Shown piece after piece: positions 7,582-20,348 of a stretch of DNA of 20,348 nucleotides. Under the pieces are notes generated by a model. The model worked only from the letters and a program-made list of their open reading frames with translations. It searched no databases and was not told where the DNA came from. Source of the DNA: a virus (lineage: Duplodnaviria > Heunggongvirae > Uroviricota > Caudoviricetes). Location of the stretch: the IMG/VR virus record IMGVR_UViG_2728369592_000008; one strand, written 5' to 3'. Within the stretch, counting starts at the first letter, position 1. Every line of letters starts with the position of its first letter. The position numbers and the translations under genes are program-made.

Positions 7582-7945
7582 AAATGCAGAAATGGCGCTT
7601 AGCTCCGCAATCGGAGAGCAGGTGGCAAAGATTGCTGGTGCTGTGTGGATTCATAACCTTCATTCTACTGGTGAAGAGAAAATGGTAATTCAGACGCCAG
7701 AGGGACGCACCATTACTACATCTCTGAAGCCGTCAGATGTTTGTGATCTGATTTGCGCATTCATGTACCCAGCAATGAGGACTGTCCACGGCGATAAGTG
7801 GAAACTTGCGACAACCGCTGAATTTGATATGTGGCTAAACAATGATGGCATGCTGACTGATTACGGAATAACCAAGTGGCAGATGCTGGTTAGCCATATC
7901 GCAAACGCTATAGACCACGTGGGGTACGGTGATGCGAAACATTGA
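7574..7945 (+). CDS. Hypothetical protein (123 aa)
   Basis: ORF with GGGAGG RBS; overlaps neighbours at both ends. Confidence 0.5.
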   Translation: MRENAEMALSSAIGEQVAKIAGAVWIHNLHSTGEEKMVIQTPEGRTITTSLKPSDVCDLICAFMYPAMRTVHGDKWKLATTAEFDMWLNNDGMLTDYGITKWQMLVSHIANAIDHVGYGDAKH

Positions 7946-10688
7946 TCTTATCCGTCAGGTTATCAGTGCGTCTGAAAACAACTGGCCTCATGTGCTGGGC
8001 TGCCTGAACATAAATGTCCCTGACTCTCCGCGCCGTCATGCTCCCTGCCCTGCATGTGGGGGCAAAGATCGATTCCGGTTCGATGACAACGGGCGCGGTA
8101 GCTTCATCTGTAATCAGTGCGGCGCTGGTGATGGGCTGGATTTAATTAAACGCGTAAATAACTGCGACACAACAGAGGCGGCGCTTCTTGCCGCTGATGT
8201 TCTGGGTATTGATTACCGGACAACGGAAACACCAGAAGCCACCAGCCAGAAACGGGAACAACTGGAAACCGAGCGCCAGCGACGCGAACAGGAGCGCCTG
8301 AAAAGGGCAGAGAAGGACGAACAACAAAGACGGGATACGTTTTCCCGTCAGTTTGATGACATGCGCAGAAAGGCTGTAAACGGCAAATCTGATTATCTGG
8401 TTGCGAAAGGGGTAGGTGATTTTACATTCCCCGTGTTGCCCGATGGATCTCTGTTGCTGGCGCTGGTGGATAAATCCGGCGCAGTAACAGCAGCACAGAC
8501 TATTACCTCACATGGTGAAAAAAGACTCCTGACAGGTTCAGCAAAGCGGGGGGCATATCACGCCATAAACGCACCAGAAACAACACAGAGCATCTTAATC
8601 GCAGAAGGTCTGGCAACGGCATTATCTGCCCATTTAATTCGTCCAGAGGCGCTGACAGTGGCGGCGATTGATGCCGGGAACCTGTTATATGTCGCCCAGG
8701 TACTGCGGGATAAATTTCCTTCAGCACAAATCATCATTGCTGCGGATAACGACCACAGCGAAGGAAGACAAAACACGGGGAGAATAGCAGCAGAAAAAGC
8801 AGCTTTATCTGTTTCTGGATGGGTGGCATTACCCCCGACAGATCACAAAGCAGACTGGAATGATTACCACCAAAAACACGGCATTAAATGCGCCACAGAA
8901 GCGTTCAATAAGTCAATGTACCAACCACAGGGTAATGGCGTGAAACAGGAGCCACAGACCATTGAGGGAAGCGATTTTAAGGTTATGGATACCGACCCAC
9001 TGAAACCAAGAATAGAAAGCCGCGAGGATGGTATTTATTGGGTATCTCCGAGAGCTGACAGCCAGAGTGGAGAAATCATCAATAACGAAAGCTGGTTATG
9101 TTCTCCGTTAAGCGTTATCGGTACTGGCAGAGACGATAAAGACCAGTATCTCATTCTTCGCTGGCTGTCGTTTGGTTCTGAAACGCCGACAACCGCTGCC
9201 ATTCCACTGGCTGATATTGGTGAACGTGAAGGATGGCGCACACTTAAAGCTGGTGGGGTAAATGTCACGACCAAAAGCAGCCTCAGAGCAATACTGGCAG
9301 ACTGGCTACAACGCAGTGGCTCTCGTGAATTGTGGCGTGTTGCTCATGCCACTGGCTGGCAATGCGGAGCGTACATCATGCCTGATGGGGAAATCATCGG
9401 AACACCTGAAAATCCTGTGCTGTTCAGCGGGAGAAGCTCAGCCGCAGCCGGATATACCGTCTCAGGGAGCGCGAAAAGCTGGCGTGATAACGTGGCGCGT
9501 CTGGCCTTTGGTAACTATTCAATGATGACCGGGATCGGCGCAGCACTGGCAGCGCCATTGATTGGGCTGGTGGGCGCTGACGGGTTCGGCATTCATTTCT
9601 ATGAGCAGTCGAGCGCAGGTAAGACCACCACGGCAAACGTGGCGAGCAGCTTATACGGCAACCCTGATTTACTGCGGCTGACGTGGTACGGAACCGCGCT
9701 GGGGCTGGCAAATGAGGCCGCCGCCCACAATGACGGACTAATGCCGCTTGATGAAGTTGGTCAGGGCGCTGATCCTGTCAGCGTTTCACAGTCTGCCTAT
9801 GCGTTATTTAACGGTGTAGGGAAACTGCAAGGCGCTAAAGATGGTGGAAACCGGGATCTAAAACGCTGGCGTACAGTGGCAATCAGCACCGGAGAAATGG
9901 ATTTAGAAACATTTATCGCTACTTCCGGGCGAAAAACCAAAGCCGGGCAACTGGTGCGACTGCTGAATATTCCGTTGAGTAAAGCAGTACGCTTTCACGA
10001 TTACCAGAACGGAAAACAGCACGCAGACGCACTGAAAGACGCTTACCAGCATCACCACGGCGCGTCCGGGCGTGAGTGGATTAAATGGCTGGCACACCAC
10101 CAGCAACAGGCTATTAAAACCGTTCGTGATTGCGAAAGCAGATGGAGAAGCCTGATCCCATCCGATTATGGTGAGCAGGTTCACCGTGTAGCCGCGCGAT
10201 TTGCCATTCTAGAGGCCGCATTGTTGTTAGGCGAGGTTGTAACAGGCTGGGATGCTCAGACATGCCGTGATGCGATACAGCACAGCTATAACGCATGGTT
10301 GCGCGAGTTCGGCACAGGTAACAAAGAGCATCAGCAGATTATTGAACAAACGGAGGCATTTCTTAATGCCTATGGGCTTAGCCGTTTTGCACCATTTCCA
10401 TACAGCCCGGCAGATTTGCCCATCAAAGATTTAGCCGGATACCGTCAGCGTGGAGAACATGACGAAAGCCCAATGATTTTCTACACATTCCCGGCCACAT
10501 TTGAAAAGGAGATCGCATGTGGTTTCAACGCAAAACAGTTTGCTGAAGTGTTGAAAAAAGCCGGGATGCTAACCCCACCAAACAGCGGTCGTGGATACCA
10601 AAGAAAATCACCACGTATTCAGGGACGACAAATAAACGTTTATGTACTCAATTACCAGCCAGGAGATTATAACTCATCTGAAGAATGA
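7932..10688 (+). CDS. Phage/satellite primase-helicase (zinc-ribbon + Toprim primase + P-loop NTPase)
   Basis: ~918 aa. Cys-rich zinc-binding motif PCPACGGKDRFRFDDNGRGSFICNQCG; Toprim-like acidic motifs (IAEGLATALS, IIIAADNDHSEGRQNTG); Walker A SSAGKTT near nt 9610. Architecture as in P4 alpha-like replication proteins. ATG 7932 preferred over the GTG at 7929. Confidence 0.85.
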   Translation: MRNIDLIRQVISASENNWPHVLGCLNINVPDSPRRHAPCPACGGKDRFRFDDNGRGSFICNQCGAGDGLDLIKRVNNCDTTEAALLAADVLGIDYRTTETPEATSQKREQLETERQRREQERLKRAEKDEQQRRDTFSRQFDDMRRKAVNGKSDYLVAKGVGDFTFPVLPDGSLLLALVDKSGAVTAAQTITSHGEKRLLTGSAKRGAYHAINAPETTQSILIAEGLATALSAHLIRPEALTVAAIDAGNLLYVAQVLRDKFPSAQIIIAADNDHSEGRQNTGRIAAEKAALSVSGWVALPPTDHKADWNDYHQKHGIKCATEAFNKSMYQPQGNGVKQEPQTIEGSDFKVMDTDPLKPRIESREDGIYWVSPRADSQSGEIINNESWLCSPLSVIGTGRDDKDQYLILRWLSFGSETPTTAAIPLADIGEREGWRTLKAGGVNVTTKSSLRAILADWLQRSGSRELWRVAHATGWQCGAYIMPDGEIIGTPENPVLFSGRSSAAAGYTVSGSAKSWRDNVARLAFGNYSMMTGIGAALAAPLIGLVGADGFGIHFYEQSSAGKTTTANVASSLYGNPDLLRLTWYGTALGLANEAAAHNDGLMPLDEVGQGADPVSVSQSAYALFNGVGKLQGAKDGGNRDLKRWRTVAISTGEMDLETFIATSGRKTKAGQLVRLLNIPLSKAVRFHDYQNGKQHADALKDAYQHHHGASGREWIKWLAHHQQQAIKTVRDCESRWRSLIPSDYGEQVHRVAARFAILEAALLLGEVVTGWDAQTCRDAIQHSYNAWLREFGTGNKEHQQIIEQTEAFLNAYGLSRFAPFPYSPADLPIKDLAGYRQRGEHDESPMIFYTFPATFEKEIACGFNAKQFAEVLKKAGMLTPPNSGRGYQRKSPRIQGRQINVYVLNYQPGDYNSSEE

Positions 10689-10710
10689 GCTTCTTCATGT
10701 GCGTAGAAAA

Positions 10711-10828
10711 GGTGTTGGTTCAGTTGGTTCAGTTGGTTCAATTTGTAAAGTGTATTGTTTTATAAGGATTTTATTCTTTTTATTGAACCAACACTGAACC
10801 AACAACACGGTATTTTGAACCAACACAA
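10711..10828 (+). repeat. Iteron cluster, putative origin of replication (three direct GTTGGTTCA repeats, AT-rich spacer, three inverted copies)
   Basis: GGTGTTGGTTCAGTTGGTTCAGTTGGTTCA at 10711-10740, AT-rich 10751-10781, then TTGAACCAACA-type repeats at 10782-10828; immediately downstream of the primase stop. Confidence 0.65.
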
Positions 10829-11451: not shown

Positions 11452-11913
11452 ATGGAACTAAAATTTATTGATAACCCTGTGCGATTACAGGCCTTTCTTA
11501 ACGAGCCAGGCAATACCGAAAATATTGTTGAGCCGGGGCACACGTACTACATCAAGCCTGATGCGGTATATCTCGGCATCTACGAAGGATTGGTGCTGGC
11601 TGGCGTTCATGAAGTGCGTAACTTCTGGCATAGCATTGTTGAATGCCATGCGGTGTACGACCCCGGATTCCGTGGTGAATATGCACTGCAAGGGCATCGA
11701 TTATTCTGCAAATGGCTTCTCGAAAACTCACCATTCCTTAACAGCATTACCATGGTTCCTGACACCACCAAATACGGACGGGCAATTATCCGTTTGCTTG
11801 GCGCTACCCGTGTTGGTCACCTTGATGATGCTTATATCAGATGTGGTAAACCCGTCGGCGTAACGCTTTATCAGTTAACTCGGCAACAATATAAGGAATT
11901 CAGCGAATGTTAA
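11452..11913 (+). CDS. Hypothetical protein (153 aa); possibly a P22 gp14-like virion protein by position
   Basis: ORF directly upstream of, and overlapping, the next gene; the call is by position and size only. Confidence 0.5.
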   Translation: MELKFIDNPVRLQAFLNEPGNTENIVEPGHTYYIKPDAVYLGIYEGLVLAGVHEVRNFWHSIVECHAVYDPGFRGEYALQGHRLFCKWLLENSPFLNSITMVPDTTKYGRAIIRLLGATRVGHLDDAYIRCGKPVGVTLYQLTRQQYKEFSEC

Positions 11914-12584
11914 TTACCCACATAGCTCATAAACATCTCAATCGTGCCGTATACGAAAAAGGCGGTGATGGTGGTGCCTCTAAAGCTCAGGCGAAGGCCC
12001 AGCAGCAGGCAATTGATTTGCAGCGCGAGCAGTGGAATACGGTGATGAATAATCTCAAGCCGTATGCAGAAGTCGGATTGCCTGCTTTACAACAACTACA
12101 AGGACTGATGACTCTGGAAGGGCAGAATAAAGCCGCGAATGATTTCTTTGGTTCTGGTTTATATAAAACACAGGCAGATCAGGCCCGTTATCAGAACCTT
12201 GTCTCAGCAGAAGCTACCGGGGGGCTTGGCTCAACAGCTACCAGTAACCAGTTATCTTCCATTGCGCCCATGCTTTATAACAATTGGCTTAGTGGGCAAA
12301 TGCAAAATTATGGAAACCTGCTAAATGTCGGGATGAATGCGGCATCAGGGCAGGCAACAGCAGGGCAAAACTACGCCAATAATACCGGGCAACTCTTGCA
12401 GGGGCTTGGCGCTATTCGTGCAGGTCAGGCGCAGCAGCCATCCAGTCTTGCGCGTGGTATTGGTGGGGCGGCATCAGGCGCTTTAGCGGGTGCGCAACTT
12501 GGTTCCGTTGTTCCGGGTATAGGTAATGTCGCCGGGGCTATTGGTGGTGGGCTTATTGGTCTTGTTGGGGGGCTTGGATTCTAA
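11907..12584 (+). CDS. Gly/Gln-rich protein with C-terminal glycine-zipper hydrophobic tail; possibly P22 gp7-like ejection protein
   Basis: 225 aa; RBS AAGGAA; C-terminus GIGGAASGALAGAQLGSVVPGIGNVAGAIGGGLIGLVGGLGF; size and position match the first ejection protein of P22-like phages (from memory). Confidence 0.5.
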   Translation: MLITHIAHKHLNRAVYEKGGDGGASKAQAKAQQQAIDLQREQWNTVMNNLKPYAEVGLPALQQLQGLMTLEGQNKAANDFFGSGLYKTQADQARYQNLVSAEATGGLGSTATSNQLSSIAPMLYNNWLSGQMQNYGNLLNVGMNAASGQATAGQNYANNTGQLLQGLGAIRAGQAQQPSSLARGIGGAASGALAGAQLGSVVPGIGNVAGAIGGGLIGLVGGLGF

Positions 12585-14005
12585 TGGCGACATGGCAACT
12601 TGGCGGGCTGCCTAGCATGGCACCGCAAAATGATAATGCTCCTCGTTCTTCCGTTCCTCAGCCTGTGCAGTATCAGCAGCAGCCAAACGTAGGTTTAATG
12701 GCGCTACAGGGGCTAAGAGGCGTTGCTGAGATTAATCAGCAGGCACGTCAACAACAGCGTAAAGCAGAGTTTCAGAAAGCATATGCCGGGGCTTTTGAGT
12801 CTGGAGACAGAAACAAAATGCGCAGTCTTATTTCTGAGTATCCAGAAGAATTTGAAAGCGTTCAGAAAGGGATGGGCTTTATTGATGACGACCAGAGAAA
12901 TTCTATTGGTCATCTTGCGACTAGTGCTCAAATCGCATCTTCGCTCGGAACTGGGGCATTTGGAAAATTCATAGCAGATAACGAAGATGAAATGCGTCGC
13001 TTGGGAATTTCTCCTGAGTCTGTTGCCGAAATGCATGTTAATGATCCACAGGGATTCCAGCGGCTTGCTGGTAGTATGGCACTGTTTTCTCTCGGTCATG
13101 AGAAGTATTTCGATATCAAAGATCAAATGGAAGGTCGGGATATTGAGCGTGGCAAGTTGGCAGAAACAATCCGCAGCAATCAGGCTGGCGAAGCACTTCA
13201 GGCGAGAGGGCAGGATATTAGCCGAGCAAATGCGTTAACGTCAGCATATGCACCAACAGCAGCAATGCAGAATTACAATCAGTACGCTCAAATGTTAAAG
13301 GAGGATCCAGAGGGGGCGGCGGCATTTGCGGCAGCGGCTGGAATTAATACAAACGCCAAAAAATTAATGAGTGTTAGAGAAAACGATGATGGCACTGTCA
13401 CAAAATACTACACAGACGGAAGTGAAGAGCAGGGAAAACTAAACCAGCCAATATCTGGAGATGGGTTTCGTCCAATAGCTTTGCCAACAGCCCAAAAGAT
13501 CATGGAAAAGTCGCCAGAAGGGGCTAAAAAAGCTGCTGGATTTGCATACAGGGTTAGGGATGCTCTTGATTCAATAGATACACTGAAAGACCAGCTTAGC
13601 CCACAGCGAGTGGCGATCATTAATAATGCTTTGGGTAATGGGACGCTGGCTAACTTAACGCTCAGCCCAACAGAGCAGCAATACGTTGTTAATGCTAATG
13701 ACGCAATAATGGCAATACTCCGTCAGGAAACAGGGGCAGCTATCGTACCTGCTGAAATGTCAAAATATTATCAAATGTATTTCCCTCAGCCTGGCGACTC
13801 CACAAAAACCATTGATACCAAGCGCCGGAAGATGGAAAACCAGTTCAATTCGCTGAAAGCTGCTTCTGGTCGAGCTTATGATGCTTTGCGGGTTATTTCA
13901 GCAGTTGACAGAGGAACTTCTTCTTCGTCGCAGACATTGCCGCAATCTGAGCAGGTATCACAGCCAGCAGCCAGCAGTAACTTTTCTTCACTATGGGGTG
14001 ATTAA
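12584..14005 (+). CDS. Hypothetical protein (473 aa); possibly P22 gp20-like DNA-transfer/ejection protein
   Basis: ATG overlaps upstream stop (TAATGG); size and order consistent with the middle ejection protein of P22-like phages. Confidence 0.5.
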   Translation: MATWQLGGLPSMAPQNDNAPRSSVPQPVQYQQQPNVGLMALQGLRGVAEINQQARQQQRKAEFQKAYAGAFESGDRNKMRSLISEYPEEFESVQKGMGFIDDDQRNSIGHLATSAQIASSLGTGAFGKFIADNEDEMRRLGISPESVAEMHVNDPQGFQRLAGSMALFSLGHEKYFDIKDQMEGRDIERGKLAETIRSNQAGEALQARGQDISRANALTSAYAPTAAMQNYNQYAQMLKEDPEGAAAFAAAAGINTNAKKLMSVRENDDGTVTKYYTDGSEEQGKLNQPISGDGFRPIALPTAQKIMEKSPEGAKKAAGFAYRVRDALDSIDTLKDQLSPQRVAIINNALGNGTLANLTLSPTEQQYVVNANDAIMAILRQETGAAIVPAEMSKYYQMYFPQPGDSTKTIDTKRRKMENQFNSLKAASGRAYDALRVISAVDRGTSSSSQTLPQSEQVSQPAASSNFSSLWGD

Positions 14006-16110
14006 TGGCTAAAGCATGGAAAGATGTTATCGCCTCTCCACAGTATCAGGCGTTAGCACCAGAACAAAAAGCGCAGGCTCAGGAGCAATACTTCAATGAA
14101 GTCGTTGCCCCGCAAGCCGGAGAAAGTGTAGAGCAGGCTAAGCAGGCTTTTTATGCTGCCTATCCACTACCATCAACGAATGAAATAGACCGAGCCCAAT
14201 CAGCAACTCAAAATATTCAACATACATCATCTGATAATTCTCTTGCGTCAGGGTATGCAAAGTTAGCTACTCAGCAAAGAGAGGGGCTTGAGCGTTCAGC
14301 AGAACAGGGAGCCAGCCTTGGGGCTGCGATGCGCGATGCTATAACAGGCGAAAGCCGAATGACTCCAGAGATGGAGAGACTGCAAAATGTCGACCTTGCC
14401 CCAGAGTTAACCTCACTCAGCATGGATGCTCTAAAAGCTCGATGGTCTCAACTTTTCGGCTCTGACGCATCTCAGGAAAAGATTCTTCAGAGCATGGGAG
14501 CGAAATTAAGGCAGGATGAGAAGGGTAACACTATCGTTTCCCTGCCATCCGGTGATTATGCTCTGAACAAGCCGGGTTTATCGCCGCAAGACGTGGCATC
14601 GTTTCTGGCTAATGCGCTGGCGTTTACACCAGCGGGCAGGGCCGGAACGGTGCTGGGGGCCATAGGGAAATCAGCAGCTACAGATTTAGCACTACAGGGA
14701 GCCACCAGCCTCGCTGGTGGAGAAGATATTGATCCGTTACAAACGGTAATTTCTGCTGGCATTGGTGGTATTGGTAAGGGGCTGGAAAATACAGCGAGTG
14801 CGGTTTCGAGGGCTGTTCGTGGTGATATGTCGCCTGAAGCAAAGGCTGCTGTCGACTTTGCATCGGAAAGAAATCTGCCGTTAATGACCAGTGACATGCT
14901 GAAAGATAAAACCTTTATGCAGAGTCAGGCTCAGACATTAGGCGAAAGAGTTCCTTTTTTTGGAACCGGTAAGAATCGGCTGAATCAACAACAAGCACGA
15001 GAAAATTTAGTCAGAACATTTAGCGATGGTCTGGGTGGCATTTCTGATAAACAGCTTTATGAATCTGCGACTAAAGGGCAACAAAAATTCATTGAGGCAG
15101 CAGGAAAGCGATATAACCGCATAATTGACGCTATGGGGGATACCCCTGTCGATCTCTCAAACACGGTAAAAGCTATCGACAATCAGATTGCTGTGTTAAG
15201 CCGCCCGGGTAAATCTCAGGATAGAGCCGCGGTAAAAGTCTTGCAGCAATTTAAAGACGATATCACCAGCGGACCAAATGACCTGCGTCTGGCGAGGGAA
15301 AACAGAACCGATCTTCGAAAGCGGTTTATGGCGTCATCTGACACTGTTGATAAAGATACGCTCCAGAAAGCCAGCGATATTATCTACAAGGCATATACGG
15401 CGGATATGAAAAAAGCCGTAGCCAAAAATCTTGGAGCAGACGAAGCCATTAATATGGCAAGGGTTGATCGCTCATGGTCTAAATTCAATGACATGATGGG
15501 AAGAACGCGCGTTCAAAAGGCAATAGCCAGCGGCAAGGCCACGCCTGAGGATGTAACAAAACTCGTTTTTAGCCAAAGCCCATCAGAACGTTCTCAGCTT
15601 TACAGGCTTCTGGATGACAATGGTAGGCAAAACGCACGAGCAGCCATAGTTCAGAATGCTGTAGATAAGGCGACTGATCCGTCTGGAAATATCAGTGTTG
15701 AGAAGTTTATTAATGCGTTACACCGGAACAGGAAGCAATCAGCAACTTTCTTTAAAGGCGTACATGGAAAGGAACTGGACGGCGTTATTAAATACCTCAA
15801 CGATACAAGACACGCGGCAAAAGCGAACGTTCAAAACTTAAATGGTCAGCAGCTTTATGGATTGTTAGTTGGTGGTGGCATCATAAACGCAGCAGTATTA
15901 GCGGGGATGCTAAAAACGGCTGCGTTTGTTGTTCCTGCTGCTGGTGCCGTAGGCGGAGCCGCGAAGGCATACGAAAGCCCTGTTATACGAAATGCCTTGT
16001 TACGTTTGGCAAATACGCCAAAAGGTAGCACAGCATATGACAGAGCGATCAGTACGGTCACACAATCGCTCACCAGAGTCGCACAGGCATCACAAAAAGA
16101 AGCTCAATAA
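14005..16110 (+). CDS. Hypothetical protein (701 aa) with C-terminal hydrophobic hairpin; possibly P22 gp16-like DNA-transfer/ejection protein
   Basis: ATG overlaps upstream stop; Ala/Gln/Lys-rich; hydrophobic stretch LLVGGGIINAAVLAGMLKTAAFVVPAAGAVGGAA near the C-terminus. Confidence 0.5.
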   Translation: MAKAWKDVIASPQYQALAPEQKAQAQEQYFNEVVAPQAGESVEQAKQAFYAAYPLPSTNEIDRAQSATQNIQHTSSDNSLASGYAKLATQQREGLERSAEQGASLGAAMRDAITGESRMTPEMERLQNVDLAPELTSLSMDALKARWSQLFGSDASQEKILQSMGAKLRQDEKGNTIVSLPSGDYALNKPGLSPQDVASFLANALAFTPAGRAGTVLGAIGKSAATDLALQGATSLAGGEDIDPLQTVISAGIGGIGKGLENTASAVSRAVRGDMSPEAKAAVDFASERNLPLMTSDMLKDKTFMQSQAQTLGERVPFFGTGKNRLNQQQARENLVRTFSDGLGGISDKQLYESATKGQQKFIEAAGKRYNRIIDAMGDTPVDLSNTVKAIDNQIAVLSRPGKSQDRAAVKVLQQFKDDITSGPNDLRLARENRTDLRKRFMASSDTVDKDTLQKASDIIYKAYTADMKKAVAKNLGADEAINMARVDRSWSKFNDMMGRTRVQKAIASGKATPEDVTKLVFSQSPSERSQLYRLLDDNGRQNARAAIVQNAVDKATDPSGNISVEKFINALHRNRKQSATFFKGVHGKELDGVIKYLNDTRHAAKANVQNLNGQQLYGLLVGGGIINAAVLAGMLKTAAFVVPAAGAVGGAAKAYESPVIRNALLRLANTPKGSTAYDRAISTVTQSLTRVAQASQKEAQ

Positions 16111-16128
16111 CTGGTAGCCATGGATGGC

Positions 16129-16743
16129 TTAGATATCTCTGCTGTCTCCATTAGGAAATAAAAGATAATATGGATTTGCCTTTCTTGCTCTCCTTGCTTC
16201 ACCTGGATACCTGTTAGTCAGTAGTTTGCATAATGAGCAGAGAACAACACTCAAGAAAATTCCGAATGAGAAGATCAATATCTCACCAAAAATCAATGGC
16301 GATATTAAATTTTCAGGATTTAATGATAAGTCAATGTTAAAAACATATTGAGCAATACCAGTAAGTATCAATAATATAATCCCTATGGAATACATTGCTG
16401 TTTCCCAAACATCAGACAGTCTATTTTTGAATTGTTCGCTGGAGTAGTAGTTTGTTATAAAGTCAGAAAAATCACTCTCATATGCATCATCTTTAGGTGA
16501 TGTTAGAAATCCTCTGTCTCTCCATACCTTCTCCCAATTAGTCGATTCTTTTTTTAAGGAAAAATAAATATGTATTGCCAAAAGGATAGCCAAAATTGGT
16601 GTTAGCTCTAAAAAATAGAATGTTATGGAATAAATAATACTGCCATGTTCAAACTCATCTGGGACTATCATGTATGCACAAAAATAAATTGAAAAGTACA
16701 CCATGCAGATAGTTAGCAATTCTTTAGTATCTTTTCTGCTCAC
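16129..16743 (-). CDS. AT-rich polytopic inner-membrane protein (about four predicted TM helices); candidate superinfection-exclusion or defence effector
   Basis: 204 aa, GTG start with AAGGGGG RBS; hydrophobic segments at roughly aa 9-27, 36-61, 116-135, 147-176; visibly lower GC than flanking genes; convergent with the upstream operon. Confidence 0.55.
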   Translation of the reverse strand: MSRKDTKELLTICMVYFSIYFCAYMIVPDEFEHGSIIYSITFYFLELTPILAILLAIHIYFSLKKESTNWEKVWRDRGFLTSPKDDAYESDFSDFITNYYSSEQFKNRLSDVWETAMYSIGIILLILTGIAQYVFNIDLSLNPENLISPLIFGEILIFSFGIFLSVVLCSLCKLLTNRYPGEARRARKANPYYLLFPNGDSRDI

Positions 16744-16960
16744 ACCAACCCCCTTTAGCGTTGTTTAGAATGGCAATCATCATATATCCAAGACATGGCA
16801 TTTGGTACATAGCTTGGGTCGGGATTTCAAATCCGATCCCCGTTGATGGGGCCGTTACAGTACGCGCATATCCGCTTTATGTGAAACAGGAAGATTTTTC
16901 TGATATCACTGCCACAGCAAAACACCAATTTCGTGACCAGTACGCGCGCGAGGGGTATCA

Positions 16961-16979
16961 GTTGCAAAAATTTTGCAAC
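16961..16979. promoter_or_regulatory. Perfect 19 bp palindrome GTTGCAAAA-A-TTTTGCAAC flanked by GACCAGTACGC direct repeats
   Basis: Palindrome at 16961-16979; GACCAGTACGC at 16934-16944 and 16987-16997; related CAGTACGCGC motifs near 16858 and 17225. Confidence 0.45.
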
Positions 16980-17612
16980 TACGTCCGACCAGTACGCACA
17001 CGATGGCGGGGGATACCATGAAACTGTTCTCTACACGAGACAGAGTGGTGGTGATGTGTTGATTATCGGCGTATATGCGCACAGGACGCGCTATGACGAT
17101 GTTTTATGCGGGTACACCAATCACATGTATCTGATGTGATAAATCGTGTTACATGACATCTCATGTTGTGCTGGTGGTTATCACGACGTTCTGAATCTGG
17201 CCTTTGCCTGATATTTTGCGACAAGTACGCGCGCGTAGCATCGAAATTATCGGATGGCGTATGCTGCTGGCAATATGAAGACCGATAGTATTAACCGAAA
17301 AGCGATTAAGGAGTGCCAACTTTTCAGTAGAGAAACTAGCCAGCATAGGAAAATGTAGAAATTACCCAATTAATAGGTAAAAGTTATTGACACAGCCTGT
17401 AGTGGATAACGATATGAATAAAAACCACATATAGTGGTTTTTCGTGAGTGATGATAGTATCTATGTTAGTTTCCTAAGTAACTGTGCATTGACATGTGGA
17501 TAACTTCGGATAGAGTTACAGGCAACCGAGCCCGATCCTCTGTTTCTCCGCCGCCGATTTCAGGCATGTGAGTTTCACGGTCGGGCCTTTTATTATCTTT
17601 TGTTTCGCCACT

Positions 17613-18590
17613 ATGATTGCCGCAAAGCCTCATAAGGACTATCACGAATTGCTAGGATTGCTACTTGAACGTGGCATGATTATCAATGATCGAAATCGTG
17701 CGATACGTAAGCTGTCGCAGGTTGGATATTATCGATTGTCAGGTTTTTGGTACCCATCAAGAATTATTGCGACAACAGATAAAGGTCTTTCGTACAGAAC
17801 AGACCGATTTCTTGCTGGTACCAGTTTCGAGAAGACGTACGATCTATATCTTTTTGACAAAAAACTGCGTCTTTTGATGATTGATGCTATCGAAAGAATA
17901 GAGATTCATGTTCGTTCAGTCATCGCGCATGAGGTTGGTCGCAATGATCCACTTGCCTACATGTCATCAAAATACATTAATCCAAAATTCTCATCTGCCT
18001 TCGAGCATTGGGTGTATAAGCAAAAAGTAAAATTAGACGAAAGCAGAGATGACTGTATTGAATGGCATCGAAGCCAAGGCAAGGAGATTCCATTTTGGGT
18101 GGCGGTGGAGACCTGGGATTTTGGTCAGATGTCTAAATATTATGCGATGCTTAATGGTCATATGCAGGGGAAAATTATACGTCGTTTTGGCATTGATAAT
18201 AAGCAGACATTTGCAAAATGGTTGAAGTGCCTTAATCTCATAAGGAATCGTTGCGCTCACCATTCCAGAATATGGAATAGAAAGCATCCCCGAGTTCCAG
18301 TACCGGATAATGAATACTTTGACGGACTTAATCTCCATCCAGAGAGTTGCGAGAGGATTTTTAGCGCGATCTGTATTATCTGGTACTTAGTTAAACGACT
18401 TGGTCCGGGATCAACATGGCTTCGGCAAATTGCAGACCTTATTGACTCTAAACCAAATGTTCCCGGATGTGGATATGATTCAATGGGTTTACCTGCTAAA
18501 GGATTCCCACGAGAGAGATTCTCTCAGGACTTAGGTTTTGTTATCGCCGACAACGACCCTGTAGCTGAAGGGCGGAAAGGGAGCGATTGA
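17613..18590 (+). CDS. Abi_2-family abortive infection protein (AbiD/AbiF-like)
   Basis: Signature stretches match the family: KPHKDYHELLGLLLERGMIINDRNRAIRKLSQVGYYRLSGFWYP, LYLFDKKLRLLMIDAIERIEIHVRSVIAHEV, LIRNRCAHHSRIWNR. ATG 17613 preferred; the listed 17568 start adds 15 hydrophobic residues. Confidence 0.8.
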   Translation: MIAAKPHKDYHELLGLLLERGMIINDRNRAIRKLSQVGYYRLSGFWYPSRIIATTDKGLSYRTDRFLAGTSFEKTYDLYLFDKKLRLLMIDAIERIEIHVRSVIAHEVGRNDPLAYMSSKYINPKFSSAFEHWVYKQKVKLDESRDDCIEWHRSQGKEIPFWVAVETWDFGQMSKYYAMLNGHMQGKIIRRFGIDNKQTFAKWLKCLNLIRNRCAHHSRIWNRKHPRVPVPDNEYFDGLNLHPESCERIFSAICIIWYLVKRLGPGSTWLRQIADLIDSKPNVPGCGYDSMGLPAKGFPRERFSQDLGFVIADNDPVAEGRKGSD

Positions 18591-18619
18591 GCGATAAATA
18601 TCATTTATACACTGATCAA

Positions 18620-19060
18620 TTACTGAAGCAGCGTATTGATTCTTTTAATATTGTTACCCTGACGCTTCCACGCGCTGTAAATGTCTTTATCCCACGCTTT
18701 ACCAGCTTTTGTTTGGTAGCCTGCTTCATTGAGCCGTTCCGCTATCACACGCCCATTATCAAATCCCTGTCGGATGGTATCGGCAATGATCTTTATAACT
18801 GCCGTTTCGTTATATGGCTTTGGTGGGATGTTCGGCTTTCCGGCAATAAGCGACGCAGCGGCTTTTTCCATGCGCTCCACCAGCCCAAGCATTCGTGAAT
18901 CAATAGACTTTTCCGGCTGTCCCAGCTTCATGCGAATCGCATCAACAAGCCAGGAGGTTTTATCCCCTCCAGAAGCGAGAACAGACCGATTAAACTCATC
19001 CTGCAATTCAGATGGGATGCGGAACGCGACCAGATTAGATTTGCTCATTGCAAAGACCAT
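18620..19060 (-). CDS. Ribbon-helix-helix DNA-binding protein with C-terminal recombinase-type (catalytic-domain-less) DNA-binding module
   Basis: 146 aa; N-terminal SNLVAFRIPSELQDEFNRSVLASGGDKTSWLVDAIRMKL fits an RHH fold; C-terminal IADTIRQGFDNGRVIAERLNEAGYQTKAGKAWDKDIYSAWKRQ resembles the DNA-binding 'recombinase' domain of large serine recombinases. No clear RBS; start could be 19048. Confidence 0.55.
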   Translation of the reverse strand: MVFAMSKSNLVAFRIPSELQDEFNRSVLASGGDKTSWLVDAIRMKLGQPEKSIDSRMLGLVERMEKAAASLIAGKPNIPPKPYNETAVIKIIADTIRQGFDNGRVIAERLNEAGYQTKAGKAWDKDIYSAWKRQGNNIKRINTLLQ

Positions 19061-19077
19061 ATCAGTGAGTAATATCC

Positions 19078-19109
19078 ATACAGTATACCACTGTATAACA
19101 CTGTTATAC
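19078..19109. promoter_or_regulatory. Overlapping palindromes upstream of the RHH gene (candidate autoregulatory operators)
   Basis: ATACAGT-ATACC-ACTGTAT (19078-19096) and GTATAACA-C-TGTTATAC (19093-19109). Confidence 0.45.
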
Positions 19110-19157
19110 GCTCAAATATCAGCCAGAAAATAACGGACCAATCACAAAGCTATCGCT

Positions 19158-19286
19158 GTGTTGTTGGTTCAGAGCTGGGCTGTGTTGGTTCAAAATGAGT
19201 TGATGTTGGTTCAATATTTCAGAAAAAACACAATAAAAACAACGATCTTTACAAATTGAACCAACTGAACCAACTGAACCAACACC
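19158..19286 (-). repeat. Second iteron cluster, inverted copy of the ori cluster (crr-like cis replication site?)
   Basis: 19247-19286 is the exact reverse complement of the 40-mer at 10711-10750; three further TGTTGGTTCA copies at 19162-19215 across an AT-rich spacer. Confidence 0.6.
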
Positions 19287-19319
19287 TTTTTGCTTATCTA
19301 TATAATCTGAGAGGCAGAA

Positions 19320-19607
19320 ATGATAAGGGACAGGAAAGCTGAAGAACTGGAGTCAAAAGGGCTATACCGGAGAGCTGCCGCACGATGGGCAGAAGTCATG
19401 ATGCTGGCAGATGGCGATAAAGAACGTGAACATGCAGCAAACAGACGCTCTGAATGTATCCGTAAGGCGGCACGCCCACCAGCAACTACAGACAGATTCG
19501 GAGATTTAAGACAGGCAGTTAAGCGGACTCATTCGGCTCTTGGTATGGATGAGGAAGCGAGAGGGTATTTCAGGCGTTATCGCGATAAAGATTGCCAGAG
19601 ACAGTAA
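19320..19607 (+). CDS. PerC-family transcriptional activator-like protein
   Basis: 95 aa; N-terminal RKAEELESKGLYRRAAARWAEVM resembles PerC/Pch family activators carried on prophages; RBS GAGAGG upstream. Confidence 0.55.
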   Translation: MIRDRKAEELESKGLYRRAAARWAEVMMLADGDKEREHAANRRSECIRKAARPPATTDRFGDLRQAVKRTHSALGMDEEARGYFRRYRDKDCQRQ

Positions 19608-19868
19608 TGCTCTCTCTGTTTTGGCAAATTACCCCTCACTTTGAAGGGATCGGAGCTATAAAAATGGTGTTATCCGGCTTCCTGCATTGCAGGTTTTCGA
19701 AAGAATCAATGGGTTAGGTTATCGTGCAAATTTGCACTCTGCCAGCCAACGCAATTTCTCGTTGGCGGAAATATCAGGTATTTACTGAACGAACGGTCTA
19801 CCCGCCTGTTCAACTACCAGTTGTACATGGCTGCTTTATGTGCAAATGGTGGTGAGAGAAAATTGTTT

Positions 19869-19888
19869 GGGGGTACTTTTGGGGGTAT
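19869..19888 (+). repeat. GGGGGTACTTTTGGGGGTAT motif near attR, near-identical to the int-proximal motif at 1559-1578
   Basis: 19 of 20 positions identical to GGGGGTACTTATGGGGGTAT (1559-1578); both lie ~70-115 bp inside the island ends in the same orientation. Confidence 0.5.
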
Positions 19889-20348
19889 CTCCAAAGATGT
19901 AACTGGAAAATGTCTTTATATATCAATGTATTTTTATTGTTTGTTTTGTTCCTATTATCGCACCATTTAAATCAATAAGTTATCTCACATTTAAGTAAAC
20001 TACGTTCTCCTCTTGTGCCTTTGATTTTGCTCGCGTGCGCGGTGAAATGCCTGACTGAAAGGTGAGCATATCGACGAACCATTTCGAGAGTTTCCCATCT
20101 GCTCATTTTTAAGTGCAAGCAGGAAAACACCGGACTAAACCAATCAGCTGTTCGAAAATGGCAAGCGGATTAATATGCCATGGCGGGGCAGCTTTGAGCC
20201 GCACGCATGGGGTGTGGCAAGCCTGATGGATTTTGCTGTGCCTGTGGTGGCGTGTTTGCTGGTTTGGCTGTTGGTTAAACGCGAAAGTCATAATGCCAGG
20301 GGAATACCGCAGGGTGTTCAGGTTTTGCATAAAAAAGCCCACCATTAA

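Follow-up and report, generated by a model that had tools for sequence, protein, structure and literature searches.

The stretch of DNA analyzed here, the 20,348-nucleotide IMG/VR virus record IMGVR_UViG_2728369592_000008 (in the following, the window, i.e., the whole stretch at full length), represents a phage-inducible chromosomal island (PICI) of Escherichia coli that belongs to the EcCIMP1 type, as comparison with the published element (PMC11773190) revealed. At the attR end of the island lies a small gene on the minus strand (18620 to 19048) with a conserved coding sequence for a protein of 142 amino acids plus stop codon. The protein combines a predicted ribbon-helix-helix (RHH) domain at its N terminus with a central long helix and a C-terminal helix-turn-helix (HTH) domain, and the gene is preceded by a pair of inverted heptads, an extended −10 element, and, further upstream, a cluster of iterons. 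In this study, we describe this RHH-HTH gene, its domains, its conserved synteny, and an operator-promoter footprint that covaries with the β-strand of the RHH domain, and propose that the protein is probably a small autoregulator.

The corresponding open reading frame (ORF) extends from 18620 to 19060 on the minus strand, comprises 146 amino acids, and carries the RefSeq label “hypothetical protein” in numerous strains, E. coli LS45 among them. Among 5.8 billion proteins searched, we identified 371 relatives, nearly all of them 141 to 147 amino acids long, from Enterobacterales, and without Pfam annotation. Among orthologues, substitutions per codon are far more frequent at position 3 (0.56 to 0.67) than at positions 1 and 2 (0.15 to 0.37), indicating a real coding sequence under purifying selection. 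This pattern and the number of relatives confirm the ORF that had been called in an earlier reading of the same DNA, made from sequence alone (here termed the original prediction). Searching 1.84 billion representative proteins with a profile yielded just 81 matches, which were mostly fragments of the same RHH-HTH family, and the family is therefore narrow. No model in NCBIfam or PADLOC matches the protein, and a literature search found no paper on such an RHH-HTH protein in PICIs, nor one naming HTH_62/PF20552, a domain family that becomes relevant below. We also considered RgdR, another small PICI regulator from E. coli (99 amino acids, with an RGD motif), and judged it to be unrelated by its published description alone.

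Both RefSeq and the original prediction place the start codon at 19060, the latter with the remark that it is uncertain. The homologues align from codon 5 of the 146-amino-acid ORF, with N termini reading MSKS, MNKS, or MSNS, and the upstream ATG is not kept in frame in Raoultella and Serratia. For these reasons the true start is most probably located four codons downstream, at 19048, and the position given earlier has to be shifted. In three otherwise intact copies of the gene on IMG/VR contigs (L068, L081, and L105), ATA is found instead of the ATG start, with operator and −10 element unchanged.

The first 45 residues counted from the conserved start (18914 to 19048, minus strand) read as a strand SNLVAFRIP, a helix A, a G-x-D-K-T turn, and a helix B, and the turn is invariant in the family alignment. 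An AlphaFold2 (AF2) model of the window protein has helices at residues 17 to 29 and 36 to 46, where an RHH domain is expected to have them. Searching the PDB with a profile of the N-terminal region returned the CopG-family RHH protein 6xrw as top match (residues 3 to 46, E value 0.011), with VapB26, MazE6, and TraY further down the list. In addition, phrog_30270, a PHROG of unknown function, matches residues 4 to 49 with an E value of 2.7e-4. Distant members of the family show matches to RHH_1 and NikA-like models that remain below threshold, with scores of 19.1 to 20.4 bits for RHH_1 (cutoff, 20.5) and 19.5 bits for Arc (cutoff, 20.4); one of them, P0185, matches the family profile via a repeat that scores just under both the RHH_1 and the Arc cutoffs. 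An N terminus of about 45 residues with strand-helix-turn-helix order and remote homology to solved RHH proteins bears out the Arc/Mnt-like N terminus that had been proposed, at the level of remote homology and below the family thresholds.

The RHH domain is followed by a long helix at residues 53 to 73 of the 146-amino-acid numbering (18842 to 18904, minus strand; AF2 secondary structure) with the invariant residues R56, L60, R63, E65, A67, A68, and L71, which probably serves as a linker or oligomerization helix. The C-terminal domain (18623 to 18823, minus strand) consists of three to four helices with the near-invariant sequence DNGRxIAERLNEAGYQTKAGKAWDKDIYSAWKR; modeled alone, it gave four helices at a predicted local distance difference test score (pLDDT) of 93.8. 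In Pfam searches, the window protein showed sub-threshold matches to HTH_62 (PF20552; E value 0.041, 14.4 bits against a gathering score of 27) and to Recombinase (PF07508; E value 0.077, 13.7 bits against a cutoff of 21.1, covering model positions 3 to 42 of 102). The HTH_62 match recurs in 19 of 24 family members (best E value, 0.013) and the Recombinase match in 11 of the 24. A distant relative, P0195 (E value 2.8e-4 to the family profile), exceeds the cutoffs of both models, with 43.9 bits for HTH_62, and some proteins of a sister subfamily are named “recombinase family protein” by NCBI. The HTH shares with both Pfam families the pattern I-A-x-x-L-N-x-x-G-x-x-T-x-x-G-x-x-W followed by a helix.

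A plain hidden Markov model search of the C-terminal profile against the integrases of Bxb1, A118, TP901-1, and phiC31 was not significant; profile-profile comparison with hhalign aligned 62 columns to residues 176 to 249 of the Bxb1 integrase (P value 1.5e-4, probability 51%), which we take to be the start of the Bxb1 recombinase domain. Profiles of the full-length protein and of its C-terminal part gave only chance matches against PDB sequences, and a Foldseek search of the full-length model against the PDB returned nothing usable, the N terminus being of low confidence and the domain placement arbitrary. The Resolvase catalytic domain that characterizes large serine recombinases was found neither in the window protein nor in its family, and with 142 amino acids the protein has no room for a zinc ribbon or a coiled coil. 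The HTH, which is without catalytic function, thus appears to descend from, or to be weakly but reproducibly related to, no more than the initial HTH portion of the “recombinase” domain found in large serine recombinases. Accordingly, the earlier proposal of a recombinase-type C terminus holds for an HTH module without a catalytic domain, and has to be restricted to a remote, sub-threshold link to the first part of that domain. The domain search that had been suggested as a check, with the RHH and Recombinase families of Pfam, returned Recombinase below threshold and no RHH family for the window protein; both modules are supported at the level of remote homology.

Upstream of the gene, we found the sequence GTATAAC-N3-GTTATAC (GTATAACA/TGTTATAC) at 19093 to 19109 on the minus strand, with its inverted heptads at 19093 to 19099 and 19103 to 19109. 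The heptads are 10 bp apart from center to center, and the block begins 61 nucleotides upstream of the conserved start. An extended −10 element, TGGTATACT (19082 to 19090, minus strand), follows directly downstream and is conserved in both operator classes described below; relatives carry TGnTATAAT or TGGTAAAAT at this position. A second palindrome, ATACAGT-N5-ACTGTAT (19078 to 19096, minus strand), spans the −10 element. Both overlapping palindromes are therefore present in the promoter region exactly as originally described. The second one is lineage-specific, being found in E. coli, Klebsiella, Raoultella, Pluralibacter, and Serratia and absent from Morganellaceae and from class B loci, and may represent an extra half-site.

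Palindromes of this kind are not rare by chance, as 39 of 100 shuffled sequences contained one or more matches in 20 kb when up to 3 mismatches were allowed, and it is the conservation at the same place across genera that sets the 19093-to-19109 block apart. In about 45 loci from many genera of Enterobacterales, i.e., in every locus that could be assessed, the operator begins 56 to 63 nucleotides before the start codon. The upstream regions of E. coli, Klebsiella, and Serratia are unrelated save for the GTATAAC-N3-GTTATAC block and the −10-like element. Across loci, the heptads are invariant, heptads and extended −10 reach near-maximal information, and both the flanks and the spacer of 3 bp are free to vary. 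When the combined operator and −10 pattern was searched in 2.9 million IMG/VR contigs, 48 contigs matched, and in all 47 matches that could be assessed the gene follows 32 to 36 nucleotides after the pattern. Further copies of the operator were not found in the window even at 3 mismatches, and there is essentially one per 20-kb locus. When 42 loci were screened for another conserved motif in the surroundings of the gene, just iteron-derived k-mers came up, in a minority of loci. Taken together, the comparison shows GTATAAC-N3-GTTATAC to be a genuine cis element, most probably an operator as in the original prediction, for which the comparative data are much stronger support than the sequence alone, and suggests that the extended −10 belongs to the promoter of the gene itself.

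The operator exists in two classes that correspond to two sequences of the N-terminal strand. Proteins beginning with MSKSNL[VI]AFR (class A) always have inverted heptads, GTATAAC-N3-GTTATAC, and those beginning with MSKSLSVTFR (class B) always have direct heptads, GTCTTAC-N3-GTCTTAC, in the same register, with the heptad positions GT.T.AC constant across classes. The classes are told apart by seven residues, all within positions 5 to 40 and hence in the RHH domain; positions 5, 6, and 8 belong to the β-strand, and the central helix and the HTH contribute none. By alignment of the strand with that of Arc, we assume positions 6 and 8 to face the DNA. Outside the RHH domain, class A proteins of enterobacteria are 76% identical to class B proteins and 67% identical to class A proteins of Morganellaceae; strand and operator are therefore coupled over a deeper divergence and changed together on one branch. 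In comparative terms, sub-sites about one helical turn apart and a class change that tracks β-strand residues are what an RHH domain would lead one to expect. In a sister subfamily, where the strand reads SRLFSFR, GTTTAC repeats precede the start codon. In two loci of this subfamily, one from Rahnella (L115) and one from a metagenome contig (L116), the gene at about 7700 to 8000 is divergent from an operon with tail-assembly-chaperone-like and lytic transglycosylase genes. The GTTTAC repeats extend to the start codon in both, and in L115 a run of seven A residues at the start throws the ATG out of frame.

Based on these comparisons, we propose that the protein is a small DNA-binding regulator of EcCIMP1-type PICIs that would repress its own gene through binding of the RHH domain to the heptads, with the C-terminal HTH as a separate second module, and we assign this reading a probability of roughly 65%. 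The N-terminal RHH domain would dimerize, and two dimers, probably linked by the central helix, would each bind one heptad, one helical turn apart. Bound heptads would cover the −35/spacer region of the gene's own extended −10 promoter, resulting in negative autoregulation; it is the position of the heptads immediately upstream of the extended −10 that suggests repression by the bound protein. We consider the gene and the operator solid and the mechanism plausible, and it is DNA binding, repression, the oligomeric state, and any trans-acting role that we infer.

Several observations weigh against this proposal. No RHH family was found in Pfam and NCBIfam searches of the window protein even at E values up to 10, so that the curated cutoff is missed, and the N terminus is of low confidence in the AF2 monomer, which is expected of an obligate dimer and proves nothing. 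The −10 element of this copy, TATACT, is weak, and a generic scan for consensus sigma-70 −35/−10 elements gave no promoter in the region, with one terminator at chance level. Likewise, this E. coli copy has a weak Shine-Dalgarno sequence, in line with the remark in the original prediction that no clear ribosome-binding site was found; relatives carry GGTGG or AAGGA. The covariation consists essentially of one A-to-B switch plus one sister-family case and is suggestive rather than statistical. Finally, EcCIMP1 is induced and transferred without the gene (PMC11773190), and the protein is therefore dispensable for the basic island cycle.

An alternative is that the heptads are read by the C-terminal HTH and that the RHH domain serves for dimerization or another target only. 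The HTH does carry an invariant, basic putative recognition helix, KDIYSAWKR, and the heptad positions GT.T.AC stay constant between classes. Against this, the operator class changes without any change in the HTH, and three β-strand residues change with it. Moreover, RHH proteins such as Arc, CopG, and omega typically have operators of two heptads set 10 bp apart, direct or inverted, and we regard this alternative as quite unlikely. The protein could also act at the neighboring iteron cluster 2 (19158 to 19290), at a second origin, by handcuffing, in copy number control, or on the PerC promoter that overlaps the last iteron. This cluster, which forms part of the context of the gene, contains three copies of GTTGGTTCA at 21-bp spacing and three of TGAACCAAC at 9-bp spacing; six exact copies of GTTGGTTCA in total are located at 19163 to 19283, and the gene thus abuts a second iteron cluster as had been noted. 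An iteron array is present 70 to 190 nucleotides upstream of the gene in more than 20 loci of many genera, in class B at about 10 bp from the operator, and in an E. coli locus with a different replicase type (L062) the gene, iteron cluster, and PerC move as one block. This block is about 98% identical to the window, however, and may be a recent mosaic. The iteron type follows the replicase, with AGTGTGTCA in Morganella psychrotolerans and Providencia heimbachae, CGTTATCCC in Photorhabdus, and CCTGTACCAC together with a DUF5906 replicase in L062, whereas the HTH motif is unchanged across these loci. In many loci (Providencia, Photorhabdus, Xenorhabdus, and some Morganella), no iterons were found within several hundred bases of the gene, and none of the class-specific residues track the iterons. 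Binding to the iterons, one of the roles considered in the original prediction, is thus not supported, and we consider action at the cluster unlikely.

The second role considered there, repression of the Abi gene or other cargo, fares no better. The AbiD-family abortive-infection gene (17568 to 18590; PADLOC E value 8e-58) is convergent with the RHH-HTH gene at a distance of 29 bp, and the same pair occurs in one Raoultella locus. As RHH domains are common in antitoxins, and VapB and MazE types are among the PDB matches, an antitoxin-like partnership would also be conceivable. However, the gene is monocistronic and convergent with variable neighbors in the loci examined, rather than cotranscribed with a toxin as a type II antitoxin would be. 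The operator is unique in the window at 3 mismatches and essentially unique per locus, with none near AbiD; only about 51 of 361 gene-carrying E. coli genomes have the Abi arrangement, the neighbors are interchangeable, and PADLOC has no model for the protein. With a single operator and AbiD adjacent in a minority of loci, control of the cargo is very improbable. A further possibility is that the conserved HTH acts mainly in trans, on a promoter or protein of the helper phage or the host, and that autoregulation just fixes the dose. Across genera, the HTH motif is conserved more strongly than the rest of the protein, and the near-invariant recognition helix implies a conserved partner outside the promoter other than the iterons; no second conserved site lies near the gene. 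The regulator in the same slot of EcCIMP1, alpA_1, acts on the helper prophage (PMC11773190). On the other hand, no candidate trans target was found, the operator block being absent from 50,697 phage genomes by blastn, and an action in trans is compatible with autorepression instead of excluding it, which leaves this possibility, as the main role of the protein, an outside chance. Combining the two, one might speculate about a satellite-specific “two-headed” switch, in which the RHH domain would autorepress and the recombinase-derived HTH would act in trans on conserved DNA or protein of the helper phage or host, with the pairs of strand and heptad forming a small natural set of orthogonal operators and repressors; we would give this idea only a small chance of being right.

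The autoregulatory reading can be compared with several known systems. Like Mnt and Arc of the P22 immI region, the protein has a small N-terminal RHH domain that would read an operator overlapping the promoter, and Mnt carries a C-terminal helix for tetramerization, its two dimers binding half-sites separated by roughly one helical turn. A further similarity is the setting, since the island has homologues of P22-like ejection proteins and its nearest described relative is mobilized by phage vB_EcoP_Kapi1 (PMC11773190). In contrast to Mnt and Arc, the window protein is missed by the Pfam Arc model, has other heptad operators and an extra HTH after the central helix, and is encoded by a satellite instead of a phage. 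Plasmid RHH regulators of the CopG/omega type are another point of comparison: the CopG-family protein was the top match of the N-terminal profile, and the gene adjoins replication iterons. The target of the omega repressor consists of 7-bp units, which are functional both as direct and as inverted repeats, in agreement with class B and class A, respectively. Unlike in the CopG/omega systems, there are only two heptads with a 3-bp spacer (10-bp register), copy-control and partition genes are lacking, and the HTH is without counterpart. Overall, the protein seems to resemble autoregulators of the Arc/Mnt, CopG, or omega type and stays below the curated thresholds of every named family tested.

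With respect to the island as a whole, the att core TCCTATTATC, identical to the published core of EcCIMP1, is present in exactly two copies (1428 to 1437 and 19950 to 19959), the first of which is contained in a tRNA-Thr(CGT) gene (1369 to 1444). The genes are arranged in the order integrase, AlpA-type HTH protein, antirepressor, DUF4222, Ash, TOPRIM/DUF927 primase, P22-like ejection-protein homologues, AbiD, RHH-HTH gene, and PerC, followed by yagU. The island thus displays the att repeats at a tRNA gene, the int-alpA-primase core, an iteron origin 3′ of the replicase, and the lack of capsid and lysis genes by which PICIs are recognized. EcCIMP1, found in strain MP1 and mobilized by phage vB_EcoP_Kapi1 (Pick et al. 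2025, PMC11773190), shares with it the att core, the tRNA-Thr site between proA and yagU, the iterons, and the order int-alpA-antirepressor-Ash-primase-ejection proteins-PerC. The RHH-HTH gene is absent from EcCIMP1, where the slot beside iteron cluster 2 holds alpA_1 plus an unannotated ORF of 72 amino acids, and no RHH-HTH protein is described in the corresponding paper (PMC11773190).

We detected the gene in 361 of 5,426 complete E. coli genomes, at several integration sites, and found no match to it in 50,697 phage records, which marks the family as specific to these islands. In 49 loci from various species and metagenomic contigs, it is usually located near the island end, monocistronic, and convergent with variable cargo. 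The int-alpA-primase core is followed downstream by an accessory segment of variable content, which the gene adjoins or lies past in most of the loci examined; in sister-subfamily loci, it lies inside this segment. The cargo seen next to the gene includes PemK, ImmA/IrrE, tape-measure-like genes, ejection proteins, AbiD, and hypothetical genes. In other islands, the slot taken by AbiD in the window is filled by different genes, among them a PemK toxin or ImmA/IrrE with a partner, and it behaves as a hot spot for defense genes and cargo.

Iteron cluster 2 is an inverted copy of an origin-type cluster at 10707 to 10827, located directly 3′ of the primase gene, and the two arrays, each about 120 bp long, together comprise twelve exact copies of GTTGGTTCA. 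A position 3′ of the replicase is that described for the origin of Gram-negative PICIs (PMC6092414). The two inverted arrays, in each of which three GTTGGTTCA repeats at 9-bp and three at 21-bp spacing surround an AT-rich core, bracket the 8.4-kb accessory segment, and their layout resembles ori/crr of P4. They could serve as homology anchors for the exchange of cargo; L062, with its different replicase, keeps just the second array. An Rfam search of 16000 to 20348 gave one spurious match of a microRNA model on the iteron hairpin.

The island contains homologues of P22/Sf6/APSE-type ejection proteins at 11452 to 16110, which the closest RefSeq genome labels as DUF2824, “phage DNA ejection protein,” and a hypothetical protein of 701 amino acids; the gp20-like protein (12584 to 14005) shows 40 to 53% identity to phage versions. 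As the satellite is said to be devoid of structural genes, such cargo is unusual; EcCIMP1 has homologues too. Three copies of the GC-rich motif GAC(C/A)AGTACGCGCGCG are located at 16928 to 17239, in an 820-bp noncoding gap between an ORF at 16129 to 16743 and AbiD. The same motif also precedes the homologous gene in Serratia (L006) and in part in Klebsiella (L002); it has no match in Rfam and may represent a conserved feature of cargo junctions. Just inside both att ends, at 1558 to 1578 and 19868 to 19888, lies the sequence TGGGGGTACTT(A/T)TGGGGGTAT, likely an arm-type site for the integrase or an excision factor, flanking the core in the excised circle. Just outside attR, a C-terminal fragment of a tyrosine integrase (19972 to 20130, minus strand) looks like the remnant of a neighboring decayed island, as described beside EcCIMP1.

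PICIs are common in Gram-negative bacteria. To our knowledge, what is known of their regulation is limited to AlpA, and the majority of their small genes carry the label hypothetical. The gene described here, present in about 7% of complete E. coli genomes, is a conserved landmark at the edge of a variable segment for defense genes and cargo. With a defined operator of 17 bp and predicted specificity residues, one such “hypothetical” PICI gene gains a testable mechanism. If the C-terminal domain turns out not to act on the helper phage or the host, we would be dealing with a common type of autoregulated RHH protein that carries an unusual additional domain; if it does, the protein would represent a new kind of satellite-helper regulator.

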